Positions 3,638 to 52,517 of a stretch of DNA of 64,000 nt are shown here, in pieces. Origin of the DNA: Candidatus Chromulinivorax destructor (GTDB lineage Bacteria; Babelota; Babeliae; Babelales; Chromulinivoraceae); assembly GCF_003366055.1 (NCBI RefSeq), contig NZ_CP025544.1:477278-541277 (forward strand), read 5' to 3'. A program made the translations under genes and the position numbers. A model generated the notes under the pieces. That model ran no database searches, was not told the DNA's origin, and was given only the letters and a program-made list of their open reading frames with translations. Each line of letters opens with the position of its first letter. Position 1 is the first letter of the stretch.

Positions 3638-3687
3638 TAAATTACCTAGATTGAGTGAATCAAATTTTTACAAGAGAGTTTTCCCCT

Positions 3688-3860
3688 CCCTTTTCTGTGA
3701 AAACTCCGCGAATTTGCTTGCCAGTGTGCCTGATGCACTATTTTTTAAACTAAAAAAGCGTAAAGTTGCAGTCGCTGCTATGCTTGCAAAGATAAGCGTA
3801 GCGATATCGCAGGCTTGTATTTTAATTTTTAAGTTTGCTTTACACAGCCTAAATAATTAA
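3688..3860 (+). repeat. structured intergenic repeat, copy B (more diverged)
   Basis: shares gaaaactccgcgaatttgct...gatgcactattttttaaactaaaaaagcgtaaagt...gcgatatcgcagg with copy A. Confidence 0.55.
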
Positions 3861-9130: not shown

Positions 9131-10936
9131 ATGGATCAATCAAAGATACGTAACGTTGCTATTATAGCACACGTTGATCACGGTAAAACAACTATGGTTG
9201 ACGAAATATTCAAGCAAAGTGATTCTATGCAAGCGCATCATGTTATTGAAGAGCGTTTGATGGATTCAATTGATCTTGAAAAAGAGCGTGGAATTACCAT
9301 TAAATCAAAAAATGGTTCTTGCATGTACAAAGACTATTTTATTAACATCATCGACACACCTGGTCACGCTGACTTTGGTGGAGAAGTTGAACGCGTGCTT
9401 AAAATGGCTGACGGTGTTCTTTTCCTTGTTGATGCTGCAGAAGGCCCAATGCCTCAGTCTTTCTTCGTATTGAAAAAAGCTGTTGCATTAAACTTACCTG
9501 TAGTTGTTGTTGTAAACAAAATCGACAAAGAAACAGCTCGTATTGAATGGGTTATTGACCAAGTTTTCGATCTTCTTGTAGGTCTTAATGCTCCTGATGA
9601 AATCTTAGATTTCAAAGTTGTATACGCATCAGCAAGAAACGGTTGGGCAACAACTGACTATAACGTTAAAACTGATAACATCAAAGCTATTTTTGAAGCG
9701 ATTGTAAACTACATCCCTGCACCTAAAGGTGACCCAAACGGTCCTTTCCAAATGCTTGTAAGTTCAATTGATCATTCAGCTTTCATGGGTCGTTTAGCAA
9801 TTGGTAAAGTTACTTCTGGTTCAATAGCTTTAGCTAACAGCGTAGTTGCTGCATCAGAAAACTTTATGAGTCAGCCTATCCGTGTAACAAAATTATACAG
9901 ATTTGAACGTAATAAACATATGGAAATCGAAACAGCTTCAGTTGGTGAAATCATCGCTGTTGCAGGTTTTAAAGATATTTTAGTAGGTCAAACTGTTACG
10001 AGTGCATCAAACCCAATTCCACTACCTTCATTCAAAATTGATCCACCAACAGTTGCTATTAAATTCTTACCAAACGACTCTCCATTGTCAGGTCAAGAAG
10101 GCGATTTCATTACAAGTCGTCAATTGCATGATCGTTTACACCGTGAACCACTTTCAGACATTGCTATGCAAGTTGAAGATGATGGTATCGGATTTAAAGT
10201 TTCTGGCCGTGGCGAATTACATCTTTCAATCTTTATTGAAAAATTACGTCGTGAAGGTTATGAATTCCAAGTATCTCGTCCTGAAGTAGTTTTCCAAGTT
10301 ATTGATGGCAAAAAAATGGAACCGTACGAAACGGTAACTATCGACGTTGCAACTCAATACATTGGTAAAATTATTGAAGCTATGGGTACACGTAAAGGTC
10401 AAATGACTGATATGAGAGAAGATGGTCCTATGACTCGTCTTATCTATGAAATCCCAACTCGTGGTATTTTAGGATACCAAGCTGACTTCATGATGGATAC
10501 TAAAGGTATGGGTATCATGAGTTCTGCTTTTGACAAATACGGTCCATACATTGGTGAAATCAGACTTCGTCAAAATGGTGTGATGATTGCTATGGAAAGT
10601 GGCAAAACAACTTCATACGCACTTGAAGGTCTTGAAGACCGTGGTGTATTGATTATGGGTTCTGGCCAAACTGTGTACGAAGGTCAAATCGTTGGTAAAC
10701 ATTCACGCGATAACGACTTAACAGTTAATGCTTGTAAAGGCAAAAAACTAACGAACATGCGTGCATCTGGTTCTGATGATTCAACAGCATTACAACCGCA
10801 TCTACAAATGACGTTAGAACAATGTCTATCGTTCATTATGGATGATGAGTTGATCGAATTCACTCCAAAATCAATTCGCTTAAGAAAAATGATTTTAAAC
10901 GAAGGTGAACGTAAACGTAGTGGTAAAAAAAGCTAA
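9131..10936 (+). CDS. typA: translational GTPase TypA/BipA
   Basis: G-domain motifs AHVDHGKTT, DTPGHADF, NKID; EF-G-like domains; C-terminal BipA-type domain. Confidence 0.9.
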   Translation: MDQSKIRNVAIIAHVDHGKTTMVDEIFKQSDSMQAHHVIEERLMDSIDLEKERGITIKSKNGSCMYKDYFINIIDTPGHADFGGEVERVLKMADGVLFLVDAAEGPMPQSFFVLKKAVALNLPVVVVVNKIDKETARIEWVIDQVFDLLVGLNAPDEILDFKVVYASARNGWATTDYNVKTDNIKAIFEAIVNYIPAPKGDPNGPFQMLVSSIDHSAFMGRLAIGKVTSGSIALANSVVAASENFMSQPIRVTKLYRFERNKHMEIETASVGEIIAVAGFKDILVGQTVTSASNPIPLPSFKIDPPTVAIKFLPNDSPLSGQEGDFITSRQLHDRLHREPLSDIAMQVEDDGIGFKVSGRGELHLSIFIEKLRREGYEFQVSRPEVVFQVIDGKKMEPYETVTIDVATQYIGKIIEAMGTRKGQMTDMREDGPMTRLIYEIPTRGILGYQADFMMDTKGMGIMSSAFDKYGPYIGEIRLRQNGVMIAMESGKTTSYALEGLEDRGVLIMGSGQTVYEGQIVGKHSRDNDLTVNACKGKKLTNMRASGSDDSTALQPHLQMTLEQCLSFIMDDELIEFTPKSIRLRKMILNEGERKRSGKKS

Positions 10937-10997
10937 ACTTTACCGTTTAATTTTTGATCAAATACAAAAGAAGGGAATCTTTACAGATTCCCTTCTT
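10720..10997 (+). repeat. direct repeat 1 (278 bp): last ~217 nt of typA plus its terminator
   Basis: near-identical copy at 11675-11952 (a handful of substitutions plus a loop flip). Confidence 0.85.
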
Positions 10998-11000
10998 GCT
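10968..11000 (+). terminator. typA terminator hairpin aagggaatc-tttaca-gattccctt followed by T-run
   Basis: perfect 9-bp stem. Confidence 0.6.
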
Positions 11001-11111
11001 TTTATATAGTAAATATACACATAAAAAATTATGCGCATGAGCCAACTCCATGAGCAGCCTATACTTCATTCTAGATCGAATTTTTTATTCACCGCTAAAA
11101 TCATATACTTT

Positions 11112-11438
11112 TTATTTTCTGGCCATTGATTCTGCTAAATCGGCATCACTTGTAGCAGCAAGTTCAGCTAAAATATTTTCATTTGCGCCATTACTCATTA
11201 ACAAGAATTTTTTCATAGCACTCAATTCCAACTTATCTCTTTTTGTAATATCACTACCATCAATTAATTTATTTAATACGATAATAATTGATGGTATAAT
11301 TTTATCATTTATATCATCGCGCATAGAATTTACCTTAGAGTTTAATGACTTAAAATCTTGTGGTACTTGAGATCCTTGCATTGTATGACTGATTGCTAAA
11401 AGCATCATCGGTAAAACTATAAATTTAAACTGTTTCAT
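11112..11438 (-). CDS. small secreted protein (108 aa) carried on the insert between the typA 3' repeats
   Basis: start ATG at 11438 preceded by SD aggag; signal peptide MKQFKFIVLPMMLLAISHT; the track ORF extends further 5' but without SD. Confidence 0.5.
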   Translation of the reverse strand: MKQFKFIVLPMMLLAISHTMQGSQVPQDFKSLNSKVNSMRDDINDKIIPSIIIVLNKLIDGSDITKRDKLELSAMKKFLLMSNGANENILAELAATSDADLAESMARK

Positions 11439-11674
11439 AATCACTCTCCTTTTTATTTTATAAATCACAACAAAAAAACTGTAGCAAAAAGATAGTTTAA
11501 AAGTCAATAAAATTTCAATTTGAATATAAAAAAGCCGAGAGATTGCTCTACATTCGCATAAAAAATTATTCGCATGTACCATTTTCATGGTCGTCTTTAT
11601 TGCATTTTCAACAAGATTCTTGCTCATTTGGCCTATCCTGTACAAAAACATTAACTTTATTCTTTGGGTAATCA

Positions 11675-11952
11675 AACAGTTAATGCTTGTAAAGGCAAAA
11701 AACTAACGAACATGCGTGCATCTGGTTCTAATGATTCAACAGCATTGCAACCGCATCTACAAATGACGTTAGAACAATGTCTATCGTTCATTATGGATGA
11801 TGAGTTGATCGAATTCACTCCAAAATCAATTCGCTTAAGAAAAATGATTCTTAACGAAGGTGAACGTAAACGTAGTGGTAAAAAAAGCTAAACTTTACCG
11901 TTTAATTTTTGATCAAATACAAAAGAAGGGAATCTGTAAAGATTCCCTTCTT
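11675..11952 (+). repeat. direct repeat 2 (278 bp): copy of typA 3' end plus terminator
   Basis: see 10720-10997; hairpin loop reads tgtaaa (reverse complement of tttaca in copy 1). Confidence 0.85.
11676..11891 (+). pseudogene. TypA C-terminal gene fragment (72 codons in frame, no SD or start of its own)
   Basis: translates to NACKGKKLTNMRASGS(N)DSTALQPHLQMTLEQCLSFIMDDELIEFTPKSIRLRKMILNEGERKRSGKKS, identical to the typA C-terminus except D->N. Confidence 0.7.
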
Positions 11953-11976
11953 CATTACTATAGATACAAATATTTA

Positions 11977-12204
11977 TTACGCAGGTTTATCTTGGCATGT
12001 TTTATTGTTACCGGTTGAACAATATCCTGATTGACAATCATTATTATTTCCTTTGCAGGGATGCCCGTTTTTTATTTTAGTGCTCCCCTTTTGAACCACA
12101 ACCCCACTTTGATCAGAATTTTGAGCATACCAACAAACAGCCAAATATGCTCCCGCAATCAGAACAATTGCACTCAAAATAATTTTTAAATTTTTATTCA
12201 ACAT
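11977..12204 (-). CDS. small membrane-anchored Cys-rich protein (75 aa)
   Basis: N-terminal TM helix, then GHPCKGNNNDCQSGYCSTGNNKTCQDKP (6 Cys). Confidence 0.4.
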   Translation of the reverse strand: MLNKNLKIILSAIVLIAGAYLAVCWYAQNSDQSGVVVQKGSTKIKNGHPCKGNNNDCQSGYCSTGNNKTCQDKPA

Positions 12205-12556
12205 TGTACATTTCCCTTTTTATTTTTTTAGACTCATCTATATCTGACGTTACTACATCAAATATCTAAAAATGAAGTCTTTTTCAATAAACAGAGAAAC
12301 CTGCAATATTACTATGCTCATTTCATGTTTTACACTAATTCTACCGCGTTATAATTTTAATAATGCTTCTGCTCAATACAAACTATTGGGATAGGTATTG
12401 CCTTAAACGTAAAAACAAAGTCAGCCTTTTGCGTGAATGAACGATACAATGTATGCTTACAAAAGATAAAAAATAGATAGAGCTTAAACTCTGCTCTGGT
12501 ATGATTAATAGTATAAATATATAAAAACAGTTTTACCCTCCGCTTGGATTTTAAAT

Positions 12557-13477
12557 ATGAACAAACAATCTGCACGTAATCTTATGCTCATAATAAGTAT
12601 GATTGCATCAATTGACCACCTGCTTGCAGCTCCAAAAAAGCCAAATAAAAATTCGAATCAAAATCAACCTCCAGTAAAAAAACCTATTAAAATTGATACC
12701 GAATTACCTTTGCAAATTTTTTATCCTGGCGATATCAAAACTAAATTTACTGACATAGCAGGTCTTGATATTGCAAAATCTTGCATGCTCGATATTATTT
12801 CGTACCTGAAAGATTCTTCAAAATATGATGCTATTGGGGCAAAAATAACCAAAGGTATTTTATTTGACGGAAGCACGGGAAATGGAAAGACGATGCTTGC
12901 TCGAGCTTTTGCAGGTGAAGTTAATTGCCCATTTATTAGTATGAATGGAGCATCATTTGTAGAAATGTATGTTGGTGTTGGGCCATCTCGAGTACGAGAA
13001 CTTTTTTTAATTGCTCGCAAGCTGGCTCCTTGCATTGTTTTTATTGACGAAATTGATGCATTACTTGCAGCACGCGGATCAGATAAAGAGTATAGCAATA
13101 CGGTCAATGCATTTTTAACAGAAATGGATGGTTTATTTAACGATAACACGACAATAATTATTATTGGTGCTACCAATAGAATTAATGCACTTGATGAAGC
13201 TGCAATTCGACCAGGAAGATTTGATCGTAAAATATATATTACCAAGCCAACACTTGAAGCTCGTGTGCAACTTTTAGAAAATCAATTTAAAAAAGTGAAG
13301 CATGCACCAGGTTTAGATATTTATTACATTGCGCAAATGACGACTGGTTTTTCATGTGCAGAATTAACAAATCTAGTCAATGAAGCTGCAATTATTGCCG
13401 TTAACACCAATTCTTTATGGGTTGAAATGACGCACATTCGACAAGCATTTGATAGAATGAGAAATCATAGAAGTTAA
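12557..13477 (+). CDS. stand-alone FtsH-type AAA+ ATPase domain protein with N-terminal signal/anchor, no peptidase domain
   Basis: Walker A GSTGNGKT, Walker B IVFIDEIDAL, SRH/Arg-finger RPGRFDR; sequence tracks FtsH AAA module (FVEMYVGVGPSRVRELF); ends after the AAA lid. Confidence 0.65.
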   Translation: MNKQSARNLMLIISMIASIDHLLAAPKKPNKNSNQNQPPVKKPIKIDTELPLQIFYPGDIKTKFTDIAGLDIAKSCMLDIISYLKDSSKYDAIGAKITKGILFDGSTGNGKTMLARAFAGEVNCPFISMNGASFVEMYVGVGPSRVRELFLIARKLAPCIVFIDEIDALLAARGSDKEYSNTVNAFLTEMDGLFNDNTTIIIIGATNRINALDEAAIRPGRFDRKIYITKPTLEARVQLLENQFKKVKHAPGLDIYYIAQMTTGFSCAELTNLVNEAAIIAVNTNSLWVEMTHIRQAFDRMRNHRS

Positions 13478-13554
13478 AAAAATCAGCTTTTAAATTCTTA
13501 TCATCATAAGGACGTTATGCAAATACATAACGTCCTTATTTAAAAAAAGGCATC

Positions 13555-14391
13555 ATGTTCTCTCGTAAAAAATTTTTTATACTTCTTATCATATTTACCC
13601 ATATAAACTTATTAGCACAAAGATCAAAAAAAGATCATACGATAACGGTATTTGTCCATGAAACATTTCCTATGCGCAGGCTTTTGCACCATACCCCAGC
13701 AAAATCACTTCTGTATACAGAGCAAGGGCTTTGCTTGGCAAAAAATCTTCCAAATCATTACCATTTTTATAAAATAGCTCAGGGATGCATAAAACTTAAT
13801 AGCCATGATTATGGCTGGGATAGATTTTACATCTTTGGGTGGAAATCTGAAAAAATATTAAATAGCTCCAGAAAAAATGCTGCCAAAGATTTAGTTACTG
13901 CTCTTGCACAAGTTGTTGATAGTTATTACATCCAACATGGAGTTCACCCTTCTATTCGACTTATTGGCTTTTCACATGGTGGCAATGTTGTTTTACACAC
14001 AGCAAATTACTTACCTTTAGTGCATAATACAATACCAATAGATGTCCAAGCATGGATTTTTGGGACTCCTATACAGCAAGCTAACCACGATTGCGTTAAT
14101 CAAGGAAAATTTACACAATGTTATTCATTTTATTCAGAAAAAGATTGGATTCAACGAATTGATCCTCAAGGTCTTTGTAATAAAAAAATAAGAAAAGATC
14201 ATTTTTGGTCTGATAGAACTTTTGATAAAGATGCATCATGCATTCAAGTGAAATTTACCGTCAATGATAAATCGATCAGTCACATCTATTATCGCAGTGT
14301 ATTTAAATATTTTCCGATTATTGAACAGATCACTCAATCACAATCAGATGGTTTACAATCAGGTATGATAGCAGTTGATGTAAAAATTTAA
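13555..14391 (+). CDS. secreted alpha/beta-hydrolase (lipase/esterase-like), paralog 1
   Basis: signal peptide; VFVHETFP oxyanion-type motif; GxSxG = GFSHGG; ~65-70% identical to 15219-16073 over the C-terminal half. Confidence 0.6.
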   Translation: MFSRKKFFILLIIFTHINLLAQRSKKDHTITVFVHETFPMRRLLHHTPAKSLLYTEQGLCLAKNLPNHYHFYKIAQGCIKLNSHDYGWDRFYIFGWKSEKILNSSRKNAAKDLVTALAQVVDSYYIQHGVHPSIRLIGFSHGGNVVLHTANYLPLVHNTIPIDVQAWIFGTPIQQANHDCVNQGKFTQCYSFYSEKDWIQRIDPQGLCNKKIRKDHFWSDRTFDKDASCIQVKFTVNDKSISHIYYRSVFKYFPIIEQITQSQSDGLQSGMIAVDVKI

Positions 14392-14506
14392 AAAACAAGG
14401 TTGAGCGGTTGCCCAAAACATACAACATGCTAATCTCATATTGTATTAAAATTGAAAGCAAGGAAGTTTGAACGTTACACATATAAAATAAAATAAAGGT
14501 GTTACT

Positions 14507-15166
14507 ATGCAAAAAAAATTATTATTCATTTGCCTATTATTAAGTTCACCATGCATGATGTTTGGACAAAAAGATTATAAAAAAGATAGTTACTACCAAA
14601 ATCTTACCGATCTTAAAAAACTTAATTATGCAATTGAAGAATCAGATATTCCAACTATTACCACATTACTTACAAAAGTAGATATAAACTCTCAAGATAC
14701 AAGTGGCAGCACGCCATTACATAATGCTATTGCAGATGGAAATTTAAAAATTATACAATTGCTCGTTAATTCAGGTGCAAATATTAATGCGAAAGATAAA
14801 AAAGGATACACGCCTTTATATGAAGTTTTTAATTCACTTATTGAATCAATTGTCATGATTTATTGTGATAGCATTGAAACAGACCAATCAATATTACAAG
14901 ACATAATAGATGGATATGCTTTAAAATATATTACAATAGCTCAATATTTAGTTACTTCAGGTGCAGATACTACATTACAATACGATACTGATGATAATTG
15001 GTATGAAATAATTCCTCAAAATAAATATCTAACACTTTTAGATATTATCACTGAAGTACAATCAGCTTTTACTGAAGAATTAACAAAAAATAATTATGAT
15101 GCAACAGCGTTAAAAGCATGTATCAAACATTTTGATACATTTAAATCAATTTTACAGCGTCAATAA
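14507..15166 (+). CDS. secreted ankyrin-repeat protein
   Basis: signal peptide; ANK consensus TPLHNAIADGNLKIIQLLVNSGANINAKDKKGYTPL. Confidence 0.7.
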   Translation: MQKKLLFICLLLSSPCMMFGQKDYKKDSYYQNLTDLKKLNYAIEESDIPTITTLLTKVDINSQDTSGSTPLHNAIADGNLKIIQLLVNSGANINAKDKKGYTPLYEVFNSLIESIVMIYCDSIETDQSILQDIIDGYALKYITIAQYLVTSGADTTLQYDTDDNWYEIIPQNKYLTLLDIITEVQSAFTEELTKNNYDATALKACIKHFDTFKSILQRQ

Positions 15167-15177
15167 ATAACTAACAT

Positions 15178-15218
15178 AGAACAACCCCGAATAAACATTC
15201 GGGGTTGTTCTATACTTC
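15178..15218 (+). terminator. rho-independent terminator gaacaaccccgaa-taaac-ttcggggttgttc
   Basis: 13-bp perfect stem directly after stop of ankyrin gene. Confidence 0.6.
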
Positions 15219-16073
15219 ATGAAAGGTAATCATCTCATAATGAAAAAATATTTTGTCATATTACTATCATGTATTTTCAATATCTCTCTATCAGCTTTGC
15301 AACAAACAACAGCTGATCATGCTATTACGGTTTTTGTCCATGGCACGTACCCAATTCCTAAAATTTTACGCAATTCTCCTTTTCGTAAATTAATGTATTG
15401 CCCACAAGGCCTCTCACTAGCAAAAAAACTGCCTGCAGATTATCATTTCCATACCATTGCACAAGGATGCGTTGATCTTAATCCTTCATTGTATTCACTT
15501 GATCAATTTTATGTTTTTGGATGGCCTTCAGAAAAAATTTATGACAGCGTTAGACAACAAGCAGCATCTGACCTTGCCAACGCTCTGAAAACAACTGTTA
15601 CAAACTACTATGCTCAACATGGAATACAACCAAAAATACGATTAATTGGATTTTCTCATGGAGGAAATGTGGTCTTAAATACTGCAAATTTCTTAACTCA
15701 ATTAGTACAAGAACAAAAAATCACCACTGAAATTTGGATTTTTGGAACACCGGTACAACAGATTAACCATAATTTGATACAGAGTAAGAATTTTCATAAA
15801 GTGTACTCAATTTTTTCTCAAACTGATTGGCTTCAACGAATGGATCCGCAAGGATTATATAACAAAGATATACGACATGAATATTTTTGGTCTGACCGAA
15901 TGTTTGATAAAGATGCATCGTGCATTCAAATAAATTTCACGGTCAATAACAAATCAATTAGCCATAGTTATTACCGCCATATTTTTAAATATTTTCCTAT
16001 AATTCAAAAATCTATTGAAAATCAATCTCAAGATTTGCAATCAGGCATAATAAGCGTAGATTTAAAAATCTAA
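15219..16073 (+). CDS. secreted alpha/beta-hydrolase (lipase/esterase-like), paralog 2
   Basis: VFVHGTYP, GFSHGG; C-terminus FWSDRMFDKDASCIQINFTVNNKSISHSYYRHIFKYFPII nearly identical to paralog 1. Confidence 0.6.
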   Translation: MKGNHLIMKKYFVILLSCIFNISLSALQQTTADHAITVFVHGTYPIPKILRNSPFRKLMYCPQGLSLAKKLPADYHFHTIAQGCVDLNPSLYSLDQFYVFGWPSEKIYDSVRQQAASDLANALKTTVTNYYAQHGIQPKIRLIGFSHGGNVVLNTANFLTQLVQEQKITTEIWIFGTPVQQINHNLIQSKNFHKVYSIFSQTDWLQRMDPQGLYNKDIRHEYFWSDRMFDKDASCIQINFTVNNKSISHSYYRHIFKYFPIIQKSIENQSQDLQSGIISVDLKI

Positions 16074-16078
16074 AAATT

Positions 16079-16110
16079 AAAAGGGAATCTATCACGATTC
16101 CCTTTTTTAT
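16079..16110. terminator. bidirectional terminator aagggaatc-tatcac-gattccctt + T-run (same stem as typA terminator)
   Basis: between convergent 15219-16073 (+) and 16128-18194 (-). Confidence 0.6.
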
Positions 16111-16127
16111 GATTTCTCAAAAATATT

Positions 16128-18194
16128 TTACGACTGCAATGAATCTATCAAAGCTTTTTTAGTTACCGTAGAGCCAAGCAATAATTCAACCAACTTTTGC
16201 GGATCTTGACTACCACCATGACACAACAAAGCTTGATACAATTTTTGGCCTACTTCATTGTCAGTAATGCCATGTTTTGTTATGTATTCAAAGAGTCCTG
16301 CTGCCAAAACTTTTGACCAGACATATCCGTAATAATGTGAACCGTAAGCTATCAGATGTTCAAATCCAGTTTCAAAATGATCTTGTGGGCAGTACTCAAC
16401 ATCAGTTCTTACTTGTCTATAGAGCTTTTCAACAATATCATGAGGTTGAATTTTTTCAGCATCTTTTCCAAATTCAAGTGATATCAATGACAATAAACAT
16501 TGTCGAGATAACAAACTTGCTCGGCCAAATTTTTCTGCAGCAACTATTTTTTGTACCATTGCATCAGATAACTTTTCTTGAGTGATGTAATGCTGACTAA
16601 ACTGCTTGATCATAGAAGGATTATCCATCCACATTTCAAACAATTGCGACGGCACCTCTAAAAAGTCACGTGGTCCATGAGAGCCTGCAATATCAACAAA
16701 ATCAGTAGCCCCAAAAAGTTCTTGTAAAGCATGGCCAAATTCATGGAACAATGTTTTAACATCATGAAACTCAAGCAATGTTTTTTTACCATCTTGAGCT
16801 TTATTAAAATTCGTAATAATTGTTGAAAGACCGCTACATGCAAAACTACAATCATCTTGAATTGTAGGAATGACACTCATCTGGCATGCTTGTTCAGATT
16901 TTCCAGGGCGAGCATAAAGGTCAAAAACAAGATACCCAAGAATTTCATTTGTTTTTAAAAGCCTTACCTGAAAACAGATAAGATCTTTATGCCATAATCC
17001 ATGACAAGGAACCTGGTCAAATGATAATGCAAAAAATTGTCCAAATTGTTTAGTTAATTGATTGATAACATTATCAATAGGAAAATATTGCGCAAGAGCA
17101 GTTGCATCAATATCAAAATGACTTTTTCTATAGGTAGATCGCACAAAAGCTTCATCAAAAGGTTGTAATTTACCTGTCAAAGATAAAACAACTGATTCAG
17201 GTAAATTTTTTGTTAATTGCACAAATTCTTCATCAACAATGGTATTTGTTGATGCTACAATTTCCATAATAAAATCTTGTGCACGTTGAACGCTTCCAAC
17301 CATTTGCAATGCACACTCATACTCTGCAAAATTTTTATACCCAACTAAGCGAGCATACTCATTACGTTTATAAATAAGTTTTTTAAGCACATCTTCATTT
17401 TTTGGATACACTCGTCGATTAAACTCTAAAAATATTTTTTTACGAGTTGCAGCTATGGTACAATTTTCTAAAATCGTAAAAAATGCATCATAGGTTAAAG
17501 GGATAGTATAACCGCGTTTTGTTTGATGCAAGTTTGTAAGGTATAAAGCAGGAACTCCAACAAGTTCATCTTTGGTACAAACAATGGATTTAGCATGATT
17601 TACTATATAAGAACCAAATTCAGCTTCTAATTTTTTGATGTCTTTTGATAATTTATTTAATCGAGTAAGAATTGCTGAGGATAGATGAGCTCCTTCATGC
17701 TCTAATTTATTAATCGATTTTTGTAAAAAAGTTCGAACAGAGATTGTTTTGCTTGGATCATCATGACCGTATTGAGCATAATCTTGAAATGCATGTAACA
17801 ATATTGGGTTACGCACTAACTTGTCTGCTTGGTACTGTTGAAGTTCTGTAACCGCATGATTTGCACAAGAACGAAGTGAGGGATCACTATCTAGCATAGA
17901 TACAGTTGAGAGTATCTGTAAATTCATAATAAATTTAAATTTTGCATTATCATACAAACGAATGCTGTTATAAAAATTTCTATGTTGTGGCTCTTGAGAC
18001 TCTAATGTTTTTAACATAGTATCAATTACTGCAATAGCTTTGTGCTTCATTGCTCCTATTTGTTGTTCATTTTTTGGAAACATCGTAACAATTGATTGCC
18101 AATCAAGTCTGCTACATAAGCGCATTTCAGGACTTTTAACATAGTGACACCCTGAAAAAATCAGTAGTAATAATAATCCGTACAAGCGCTTCAT
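16128..18194 (-). CDS. M3-family zinc oligopeptidase (oligopeptidase A/Dcp-like), lipoprotein
   Basis: HEXXH as FHEFGHALQ with downstream E; length ~690 aa; N-terminal MKRLYGLLLLLIFSGC lipobox. Confidence 0.75.
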   Translation of the reverse strand: MKRLYGLLLLLIFSGCHYVKSPEMRLCSRLDWQSIVTMFPKNEQQIGAMKHKAIAVIDTMLKTLESQEPQHRNFYNSIRLYDNAKFKFIMNLQILSTVSMLDSDPSLRSCANHAVTELQQYQADKLVRNPILLHAFQDYAQYGHDDPSKTISVRTFLQKSINKLEHEGAHLSSAILTRLNKLSKDIKKLEAEFGSYIVNHAKSIVCTKDELVGVPALYLTNLHQTKRGYTIPLTYDAFFTILENCTIAATRKKIFLEFNRRVYPKNEDVLKKLIYKRNEYARLVGYKNFAEYECALQMVGSVQRAQDFIMEIVASTNTIVDEEFVQLTKNLPESVVLSLTGKLQPFDEAFVRSTYRKSHFDIDATALAQYFPIDNVINQLTKQFGQFFALSFDQVPCHGLWHKDLICFQVRLLKTNEILGYLVFDLYARPGKSEQACQMSVIPTIQDDCSFACSGLSTIITNFNKAQDGKKTLLEFHDVKTLFHEFGHALQELFGATDFVDIAGSHGPRDFLEVPSQLFEMWMDNPSMIKQFSQHYITQEKLSDAMVQKIVAAEKFGRASLLSRQCLLSLISLEFGKDAEKIQPHDIVEKLYRQVRTDVEYCPQDHFETGFEHLIAYGSHYYGYVWSKVLAAGLFEYITKHGITDNEVGQKLYQALLCHGGSQDPQKLVELLLGSTVTKKALIDSLQS

Positions 18195-25747: not shown

Positions 25748-25877
25748 AACCTTATAATAATCTATTTGAAATATTGAGAAAACATGAGACTGCTTGCAAC
25801 AAATTTAAAATAAGCATACTAATCTAGAATACAGCTCTGCTTATGTTTAAAAACAGCGCAGCGGCTATTCTAAAAAT

Positions 25878-26098
25878 TTACCCTACGTTTTCTACAAAAA
25901 CTCAGGGAATTTGCTGGCCGGTGGGCCTCATGCACTATTTATTTACATAAAAAAAGCGTAACGTGGCCGCCGCCACCACTGTTTCCGGAGATGAGCGAAG
26001 CGATATCGTAGGTTTTTGTGCACATGTAAATTTGGTTTACATAGCATAGGGTAACCTGCTTGCAAACCCCAAGACTTTTTATAAAAAACGCAGGACTA
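25878..26098 (+). repeat. structured intergenic repeat, copy C, with ~20-bp imperfect terminal inverted repeats
   Basis: 5' end ccctacgttttctacaaaaac vs 3' end gtttttataaaaaacgcagg (reverse complement cctgcgttttttataaaaac); GC-rich core gtggccgccgccaccactgtttccggagatgagcgaagcgatatcg. Confidence 0.7.
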
Positions 26099-51341: not shown

Positions 51342-52517
51342 ATGAAATATACATATAGATTACTATTCATGTTATCACTCTTACCAGCAAGCTTACAACT
51401 AGAAGCAAGACATTATGGTGATTTTTTGCATGAAAAAGGAAATGACGTGCATGAAGATTCTGTAAATCATGATTTTAATTCATTAGCAGATGTCATGAAA
51501 ATGATAGCACAACATAAAGCTCAAGGAACTTATGACGGTAGCACTCCATTACATTATTTAGCAAATGGTGATGAAAGTGATGCAGTTGAATTACAAATTG
51601 CTAAAGAATTAATGCAATCTCATCCTGAATTTATTAATGATCAAAATAATGAGAATCAGGAAAGCCCATTACATGTAGCTGCAGATTCAGAAAATTTTGA
51701 ACTAATAAAAGCTCTTATTAACGCTGGTGCAAAAGTAAATGCTCAAGATGTCAATGGTAGAACAGCTTTACATTATATTGCTTTTGGAGACACTGAGAAT
51801 GATGCTAACAATTTAAAAATAGCTCGATTTTTGATTGATCATGGAGCAGATCTGTCTATTATAGATGCTGTGCAACATGAAGAAGATGGAACTATTTTTG
51901 GAGGCCTAACAGCTGCTGATATAGCTGCTAAGTACAACACTGATTTAAAAATGAAAAAATTACTTGCTGATGCCTTAGCAAGTGAAAAAGGAAATGACGT
52001 GGATGAAGATTCTGGAAGTTTTGATTTTAATTCATTAGCAGATGTCATGAAAATGATAGCAAAACATAAAGCTCAAGGAACTTATGATGGTAGCACTCCG
52101 TTACATTATTTAGCAGAAGGTGACAACAATGATCAAGTTAATTTAAAACTTGTTAAAGAGTTGATACAATCTCACCCTGAATTTATTAATGATCAAAATA
52201 ATGAGAATCGTGAAAGCCCATTGCATGTTGCTGTAGATTTAGAACATTTTGAACTCGTAGAGCTTCTTATTAACGCTGGAGCAAAGGTAAACGCTCAAGA
52301 TCTAGGTGGTCGCACACCTTTACATTATATTGTCTTTGAAAACTATCACGCAGGTGATGCTAACAATTTAAAAATAGCTCAATTTTTAATTAAGCATGGT
52401 GCTGATGTATCTCTGAAAGATAACGATGGAAAAAATGTTCGCGATATAGCAATTGAACAAAAAGCTGAACCTGCGTTACGGTCACTTCTGTCAACTTTAA
52501 AAAATTTAAATATGTAA
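51342..52517 (+). CDS. secreted ankyrin-repeat protein (391 aa) built from two ~184-aa tandem copies
   Basis: signal peptide; ANK repeats; unit 1 EKGNDVHEDS...GADLS and unit 2 EKGNDVDEDS...GADVS ~80% identical. Confidence 0.75.
   Translation: MKYTYRLLFMLSLLPASLQLEARHYGDFLHEKGNDVHEDSVNHDFNSLADVMKMIAQHKAQGTYDGSTPLHYLANGDESDAVELQIAKELMQSHPEFINDQNNENQESPLHVAADSENFELIKALINAGAKVNAQDVNGRTALHYIAFGDTENDANNLKIARFLIDHGADLSIIDAVQHEEDGTIFGGLTAADIAAKYNTDLKMKKLLADALASEKGNDVDEDSGSFDFNSLADVMKMIAKHKAQGTYDGSTPLHYLAEGDNNDQVNLKLVKELIQSHPEFINDQNNENRESPLHVAVDLEHFELVELLINAGAKVNAQDLGGRTPLHYIVFENYHAGDANNLKIAQFLIKHGADVSLKDNDGKNVRDIAIEQKAEPALRSLLSTLKNLNM
51432..52517 (+). repeat. intragenic tandem duplication, period 552 bp (unit 1 51432-51983; unit 2 from 51984)
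   Basis: gaaaaaggaaatgacgtg(c/g)atgaagattctg... recurs exactly 552 nt later, in frame. Confidence 0.7.

Follow-up and report, generated by a model that had tools for sequence, protein, structure and literature searches.

Two typA 3' ends in tandem around an orphan gene: a probable recombination scar in a strain-variable interval of Candidatus Chromulinivorax destructor

Integrative elements insert into the 3' ends of tRNA or protein genes, making attL and attR sites. Circular DNA such as a suicide plasmid enters a chromosome by a Campbell-type single crossover, and the outcome is an insertion-duplication. A further route, homology-facilitated illegitimate recombination, is proposed for the displacement of Rhs C-terminal regions and for the effector-immunity arrays of type VI secretion systems (T6SS) (PMC5361080). 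The same architecture is found at the 3' end of typA in strain SeV1 of Candidatus Chromulinivorax destructor (also named Ca. Chromulinavorax destructans; genome CP025544). This bacterium belongs to the Dependentiae and is a lytic pathogen of a flagellate, Spumella. Within the 64,000-nt stretch of its genome that we have analyzed (the window), the end of typA and the hairpin that follows it are present twice, with 677 bp carrying a single orphan gene in between. We do not see in this the trace of a site-specific mobile element, and take it to be a recombination scar of an ordinary kind, at a place that varies among strains. On balance we think it probable that the arrangement arose by displacement of the typA 3' end through recombination between two strain haplotypes.

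The locus is a fresh instance of a type of recombination scar that is already known. As we read it, it resembles the displacement in Rhs, contact-dependent inhibition (CDI) and T6SS loci in that the conserved upstream part of a gene acts as the homologous anchor, a new 3' end and the gene downstream of it arrive together, the previous 3' end is moved downstream as an orphan fragment, and there is no dedicated recombinase. It differs in that the two 3' ends are 98% identical, the gene encodes a housekeeping GTPase, and typA is left unchanged, the payload being the small downstream gene only. Moreover there is one displaced fragment here and no array, and the host is an obligate intracellular Dependentiae bacterium. 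With Campbell-type integration the locus shares the direct duplication of homology around the insert, the reciprocal splitting of allelic differences at one crossover, and reversibility by pop-out. However, no replicon or circular intermediate is known for it, and a circle would require the end-joining of a 955-bp fragment.

A repeat search followed by realignment identifies a 278-nt direct repeat of 98% identity, comprising 10720-10997 (c1) and 11675-11952 (c2). The near-identity of the copies reported in the initial annotation is thus borne out, and there are six mismatches, at repeat positions 56, 73, 176, 178, 262 and 265 (numbered from 10720), the last two of which correspond to a flip of the hairpin loop. 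The limits of identity are sharp on both sides. It begins with AACAGTT, at the third base of typA codon 530, and ceases at the final stem base of a 13-bp hairpin, AAGAAGGGAATCT-N4-AGATTCCCTTCTT, beyond which GCTTTT... follows c1 and CATTAC... follows c2. The elements of the locus are as follows.

Positions 9131-10936, plus strand: typA (BipA), taken from the list of open reading frames (ORFs), 601 aa and intact, with its last 71 codons inside c1; the Pfam domains GTP_EFTU, EFG_C and BipA_C are found on an identical protein.
Positions 10720-10997, plus strand: c1, comprising the last 71 codons of typA, the stop codon, the 3' untranslated region (UTR) and hairpin HP1; its allele (73A, 176T/178A, flipped loop) matches no sampled strain.
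Positions 10968-10997, no strand assigned: HP1, a 13-bp stem with the loop region TTTACA (derived and flipped), terminator-like on both strands.
Positions 10998-11013, plus strand: the 16-nt leader GCTTTTATATAGTAAA, immediately after HP1, common to the occupied sites of the related strains L001, L203 and L206 and with one mismatch in L204.
Positions 11015-11122, minus strand: X1, the stop codon and 3' UTR of p108, carrying the imperfect palindrome CACATAAAAAATTATGCG.
Positions 11112-11438, minus strand: p108, encoding an orphan protein of 108 aa, with AAGGAG 7 nt before the ATG.
Positions 11552-11667, minus strand: X2, a diverged second copy of X1 that ends 7 nt before the junction and keeps the stop codon at the homologous place.
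Positions 11674-11675, no strand assigned: the novel junction, where typA resumes after the cargo end ...GGGTAATCA, at the third base of its codon 530 (AACAGTT...).
Positions 11675-11952, plus strand: c2, the displaced typA 3' end with hairpin HP2; 11676-11891 comprises 71 codons and a stop, with the typA frame kept.
Positions 11923-11952, no strand assigned: HP2, with the same stem as HP1 and the loop TGTAAA, which is ancestral; terminator-like for the minus strand and not for the plus strand.
Positions 11953-11975, plus strand: the empty-type flank CATTACTATAGATACAAATATTT, 23 nt, of which 21/23 are shared with the empty site of strain L002.
Positions 11977-12204, minus strand: p75, encoding a small Cys-rich protein, convergent on HP2 and mosaic.

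A 278-nt repeat of such identity cannot have originated by chance. The second copy starts in the middle of a codon at 11675 and has no Shine-Dalgarno sequence, while typA is completed by c1. The initial annotation had c2 encoding the end of TypA in frame, which is correct, although the 72 aa that it gave are actually 71 codons and the stop. We suggest that in annotations 11676-11891 should not be called a gene, but a displaced fragment of one. Leftward of 11675 there is zero similarity between the copies, and the donor's sequence beyond 11674 is unsampled. The join at 11674/11675 would seem to be illegitimate.

We examined the same locus on five short-read (Logan) contigs from close relatives, designated L001, L002, L203, L204 and L206, that were recovered by exact-protein look-ups. 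The DNA of typA is 99.5-99.75% identical between the window and its relatives (measured for L001 and L002). Alignment of the typA locus in relatives had been proposed as a check in the initial annotation, and it reveals an insertion polymorphism, with one strain empty and four carrying a different cargo. The empty site is that of L002, where typA is followed by the hairpin (with loop TGTAAA), CATTACTATACATAAAAATATTT (CATTAC...) and a 76-aa gene. In L001, L203, L204 and L206 the hairpin (TGTAAA again; cut at the contig end in L204) is followed by GCTTTTATATAGTAAA and an unrelated minus-strand gene encoding 95 aa (p95). This abuts a 74/75-aa gene in all four with no typA 3' fragment in between, L204 and L206 holding little or no typA. 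On its right-hand side c1 has the cargo-type leader, as in L001 and L203, and c2 has the empty-type 23-mer, as in L002. Thus both allele types of the locus stand in tandem in the window. The base of the hairpin is a pre-existing boundary between cargo-type and empty-type alleles in the population, older than the event that placed them together. Exact look-ups returned nothing for p108, p75, the AAA protein, p284 or the c2 ORF in either of two readings, and a second haplotype like that of the window is not on record. That of p98 returned L001 only, and an exact 28-mer of the typA end had no matches in metagenome contigs.

The ancestry of the two copies can be compared at the variable repeat positions, for which the alleles are the following.

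c1: 56 G, 73 A, 109 A, 160 C, 176 T, 178 A, 225 C; loop flipped.
c2: 56 A, 73 G, 109 A, 160 C, 176 C, 178 T, 225 C; loop TGTAAA.
L203, functional typA: 56 G, 73 G, 109 A, 160 C, 176 C, 178 T, 225 C; loop TGTAAA.
L001 and L002, identical: 56 G, 73 G, 109 T, 160 T, 176 T, 178 A, 225 T; loop TGTAAA.

The displaced copy c2 differs from the live typA end of L203 at just one of 278 bases. This is position 56, where Asp is changed to Asn, as expected of a copy released from selection. By comparison c1 has five differences from L203. Two of the five are the substitutions in the Leu codon at 176/178, at which c1 agrees with L001 and L002. On these alleles c1 and c2 appear not to be each other's closest relatives, c2 lying nearer to the live typA end of another strain, and this argues against a simple duplication in situ. 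The same few sites suggest that the attached copy c1 came from another lineage and that the displaced c2 is native. If the resident typA had the L203 allele, a single crossover between positions 56 and 73 (10775-10792) yields all six differences with no later mutation. The second allele needed by that crossover is A A A C T A C at the positions from 56 to 225, with the flipped loop. A raised divergence of the 278 nt relative to the rest of typA was also considered as evidence of import, and was dropped as the counts are too small.

Immediately to the right of c2 the sequence from 11976 to 12141 is L203-like, with 1 difference, compared with about 9 differences and an indel against L001. At 12142 p75 switches from L203-like to L001-like, and this is a recombination breakpoint inside the gene. 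In the next gene, AAA, all three 2+2 groupings of four strains are present, at 5, 1 and 2 sites. From the mosaic p75 and the site partitions of the AAA gene we conclude that these strains recombine. Over the p75 region (11976-12212) the DNA identity to the L002 allele is just 80%, and p75 is either fast-evolving or a recombination hotspot. The SeV1 genome encodes the rec and ruv pathways, and its site-specific recombinases are of Xer type only (PMC6561590).

The displacement that we favor would proceed as follows. The resident chromosome before the event would have carried typA with an L203-type 3' end, the hairpin, CATTAC... and p75. The incoming DNA, derived from a related but unsampled strain, would have brought its own typA 3' end, hairpin and 16-nt leader, p108 with its promoter, and the X2 tail. 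The flip of the loop would either have been present in the incoming hairpin already or have been acquired later. One side of the incoming DNA would have undergone homologous recombination inside typA, and the far end would have been joined illegitimately to the resident typA at 11674/11675. That join could have been made by prior circularisation and then a Campbell-type single crossover, or a linear piece could have undergone homology-facilitated illegitimate recombination. The resident 3' end, now c2, would thereby have been shifted 955 bp downstream as a dead fragment, with typA finished by c1. After the event HP1 would be the terminator for typA and p108, and HP2 would still terminate p75. 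The properties of the hairpins are compatible with these roles, as HP1 can serve both typA on the plus strand and the 108-aa gene on the minus strand, and HP2 fits p75.

Some observations weigh against this account. There are four independent differences only, and a crossover-compatible pattern would arise by chance in about 5/16 cases. Both the putative resident, which would combine a typA end of L203 type and a flank of the empty type, and the p108 donor are unsampled. Phasing in the Logan short-read contigs is uncertain over invariant stretches of >31 nt, with 56G-73G in L203 spanned by single k-mers. In addition, typA site 10696, upstream of the repeat, groups the window with L001 and not with L203, a grouping that fits the linear-donor variant and not a simple circle. 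A linear donor crossing over farther upstream is equally economical, requiring one private change in c2 and accounting for 10696. Lastly, the account supposes that an obligate intracellular bacterium took up DNA from another strain, for which we assume co-infection.

The 677-bp insert between the copies has p108 as its single gene, and the initial annotation was right to describe one minus-strand gene there with a Shine-Dalgarno sequence. At its N-terminus the encoded protein is hydrophobic, and after this a hairpin of two helices is predicted (AlphaFold2 on the single sequence, predicted local distance difference test score 69); it is probably a secreted or membrane protein. It has no Pfam match, and its sole match among 5.8 billion proteins is itself, from Candidatus Chromulinivorax destructor. 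No similarity was found between p108 and p95 of L001; past the 16-nt leader the cargo of the window and the L001-type cargo diverge completely, the leader being the only part that the two have in common.

The elements X1 and X2 flank p108, and in both the palindrome CGCATAAAAAATTATGCG is present in imperfect form, with the mutations in different arms. Their alignment contains 75 matches, 29 mismatches and 16 gap columns, with a Smith-Waterman score of 52 compared with 23 +/- 3.9 for shuffled sequences (maximum 38). X2 may be read as the cut-off 3' end of a neighboring gene. With such a tail the cargo looks as if it was excised from a longer run of minus-strand genes with similar 3' ends and truncated at 11674. 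A search ahead of X2 for an older, decayed copy of typA or the hairpin gave noise only, and Rfam on 10600-12400 returned sub-threshold chance matches only, with no group II intron or other element. Integron cassettes need the IntI integrase together with attC sites having RYYYAAC/GTTRRRY ends. A reading of X1 and X2 as attC sites of an integron gene cassette was rejected, with no integrase found and no GTT core in X1 or X2.

The 30-nt palindromes of HP1 and HP2 are 100% complementary. Their stems are identical, TTTACA and TGTAAA are exact reverse complements, and both fold with energies of -19 to -20 kcal/mol and z of about -6. The flip of the loop between copies that was recorded in the initial annotation is therefore real, with the stem unchanged, and in c1 it is a derived hairpin-loop inversion. 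This polarity follows from the occurrence of TGTAAA or TGCAAA in c2, in the related strains L001, L002, L203 and L206, and in the outgroups L123 and L124, with L179 also included among the outgroups used. The flip is no marker of the crossover of this event, whose likely place is about 190 nt upstream of the hairpin. The accompanying suggestion that the terminator palindrome was itself the crossover point is unsupported, as the allele pattern places the homologous crossover at repeat positions 56-73. Inversions of hairpin loops come about by template switching within the molecule or by recombination between the two arms of the stem, and template-switch mutations at quasipalindromes occur in E. 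coli. As in hairpin-loop inversions elsewhere, the loop has been swapped for its exact reverse complement while a perfect stem is untouched; in contrast to those, this is a bacterial bidirectional terminator, with a single occurrence in one allele. Small inversions have been reported in plastid hairpins (PMC12928735).

The two allele types also differ in what follows the hairpin. In the empty type (11923-11962 in the window, 2197-2236 in L002) the typA hairpin is followed by CATTACTATA, without a plus-strand T-run, and has a terminator score on the minus strand only. The cargo-type leader GCTTTTATAT gives back a plus-strand T-tract after the typA hairpin.

Across the genus the gene order around typA is conserved, with a mechanosensitive channel, p175, typA (+), a variable gap and an M3 peptidase (-). 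The gap between typA and the peptidase gene is 46 nt in L127, whose single hairpin is used by both genes, and 1.1-1.8 kb in L124, L125, L126 and L179. In the window it extends over 10936-16128, which is 5.2 kb with seven genes. It looks like a genus-wide hotspot of gene gain, and from the sequences this hotspot could possibly be anchored by the hairpin. A third hairpin lies at its far end.

Positions 16079-16106, no strand assigned: HP3, AAAAGGGAATC-TATCAC-GATTCCCTTTT, with a stem shared with the typA terminator, at the far end of the variable interval beside the M3 peptidase gene.

HP3 lies 5 nt past the 284-aa gene and 22 nt ahead of the M3 peptidase stop. Its stem is closer to the typA hairpin of L124 than to that of the window itself, and it may be an old copy from an earlier insertion. 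Elsewhere in the interval, an ankyrin-repeat gene of 227-239 aa lies between the 74-aa and AAA genes in L001 (8233-8916), L204 and L206. The window, L002 and L203 lack it, which makes a second indel at the strain level, no more than 1 kb away from the first. Two paralogous alpha/beta-hydrolase-like genes (13555-14391 and 15219-16073, with weak Lipase_3/DUF726 matches) have an ankyrin gene between them. L124 has one hydrolase-like copy, and the duplication is therefore specific to the lineage of the window.

Other origins for the repeat can be weighed against displacement. The typA end might have been copied 677 nt downstream within one lineage, by slippage, template switching or unequal sister exchange, and then have acquired point mutations. 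Such an event would be small and local, and c1 and c2 share positions 109, 160 and 225 that differ from L001 and L002. However, L203 has the same three bases, which makes them an allele class and not a signature specific to the window, and at codon 176/178 c2 sides with the live typA end of L203 against c1. In addition the functional copy would need 4 changes compared with 1 in the dead copy, and the sequences downstream of c1 and c2 differ, so there was no simple tandem duplication. Duplication in place is thus unlikely. The tandem stitching of two co-existing variants during assembly would also leave both allele types side by side. That is extremely improbable, because the genome is a single PacBio contig at 819x (assembled by HGAP3 from 20-kb reads; PMC6561590) and the copies differ by real substitutions; moreover an assembler would meet no misleading homology at the junction 11674/11675. 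The initial annotation itself proposed site-specific integration with attL/attR, while remarking that no integrase is present. In that case the locus would be the remnant of an integrase-driven element at the typA 3' end that has lost its integrase and most of its cargo. The layout does fit, with direct repeats around the insert, an intact gene and an empty L002 site, and the attached copy is the more foreign one, as for the surrogate 3' ends with which integrative elements restore the genes they enter. Yet no recombinase turns up within about 10 kb: among the ORFs with 130 aa or more in the interval 68-25747, and among the genes called in L001 and L002, none has a recombinase Pfam domain, several orphan ORFs being without any Pfam match, so the remark on the integrase stands. 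The insert is just 677 bp with one orphan gene, the four other occupied sites have other cargo and no second typA 3' fragment, and there is no second typA fragment in eight related species (typA 74-92% identical). The left limit of the repeat falls at an unremarkable coding position. We consider a decayed integrative element very unlikely, and the c1 and c2 repeats should not be termed att sites.

The palindrome might instead have driven the event, by stalling replication or extruding a cruciform and so provoking a template switch or a break at its base, with insertion of cassettes and flipping of the loop. Every haplotype difference starts at the first base past the stem, and the stem occurs three times in the 64 kb of the window, each time inside the 5.2-kb variable interval. 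The loop inversion in c1, and the single hairpin common to typA and the peptidase gene in L127, point the same way. Set against this, the hairpin beside the peptidase gene has no relation to that of typA in four other species, the crossover would lie well upstream of the hairpin, and the boundary at the stem base may merely mark the end of selection on the terminator. Furthermore terminators with a stem of this shape are common across many phyla; a scan for the hairpin motif in a collection of genome contigs gave >120 unrelated matches over many phyla, none of them overlapping the window. In viral contigs neither the hairpin nor the X core had a match. A hairpin-driven event is, if anything, slightly less credible than duplication in place. 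A broader proposal, to which we give the same low credence as duplication in place, is that the typA hairpin acts as a recombinase-free point of cassette exchange. Leader-led orphan genes for secreted proteins would be swapped there between co-infecting strains, and the gap would have grown by insertions that sometimes copied the hairpin, giving HP1, HP2 and HP3. If that were true, the typA-peptidase gap, ranging from 46 nt to 5.2 kb, would be a nursery for new effector genes.

Two further repeat families are present in the window. A three-copy dispersed intergenic repeat of 110-127 nt and 64-85% identity is found at 2582-2789, 3643-3769 and 25840-26048, the copies being separated by 1 kb and 22 kb. 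At 51431-52421 there is a tandem repeat, of period 552-555 nt and 84-87% identity, that apparently consists of adjoining ankyrin-repeat paralogues.

Displacement of the typA 3' end would provide a concrete, datable case in which strains of a Dependentiae pathogen, an obligate intracellular one, have exchanged DNA. In SeV1 44% of the proteins have signal peptides, and there are many orphans among the secreted set (PMC6561590). The locus shows an orphan, probably secreted, gene landing beside a housekeeping gene without the machinery of a mobile element, and it marks the typA-peptidase gap as a site where strain-specific candidate host-interaction genes accumulate.

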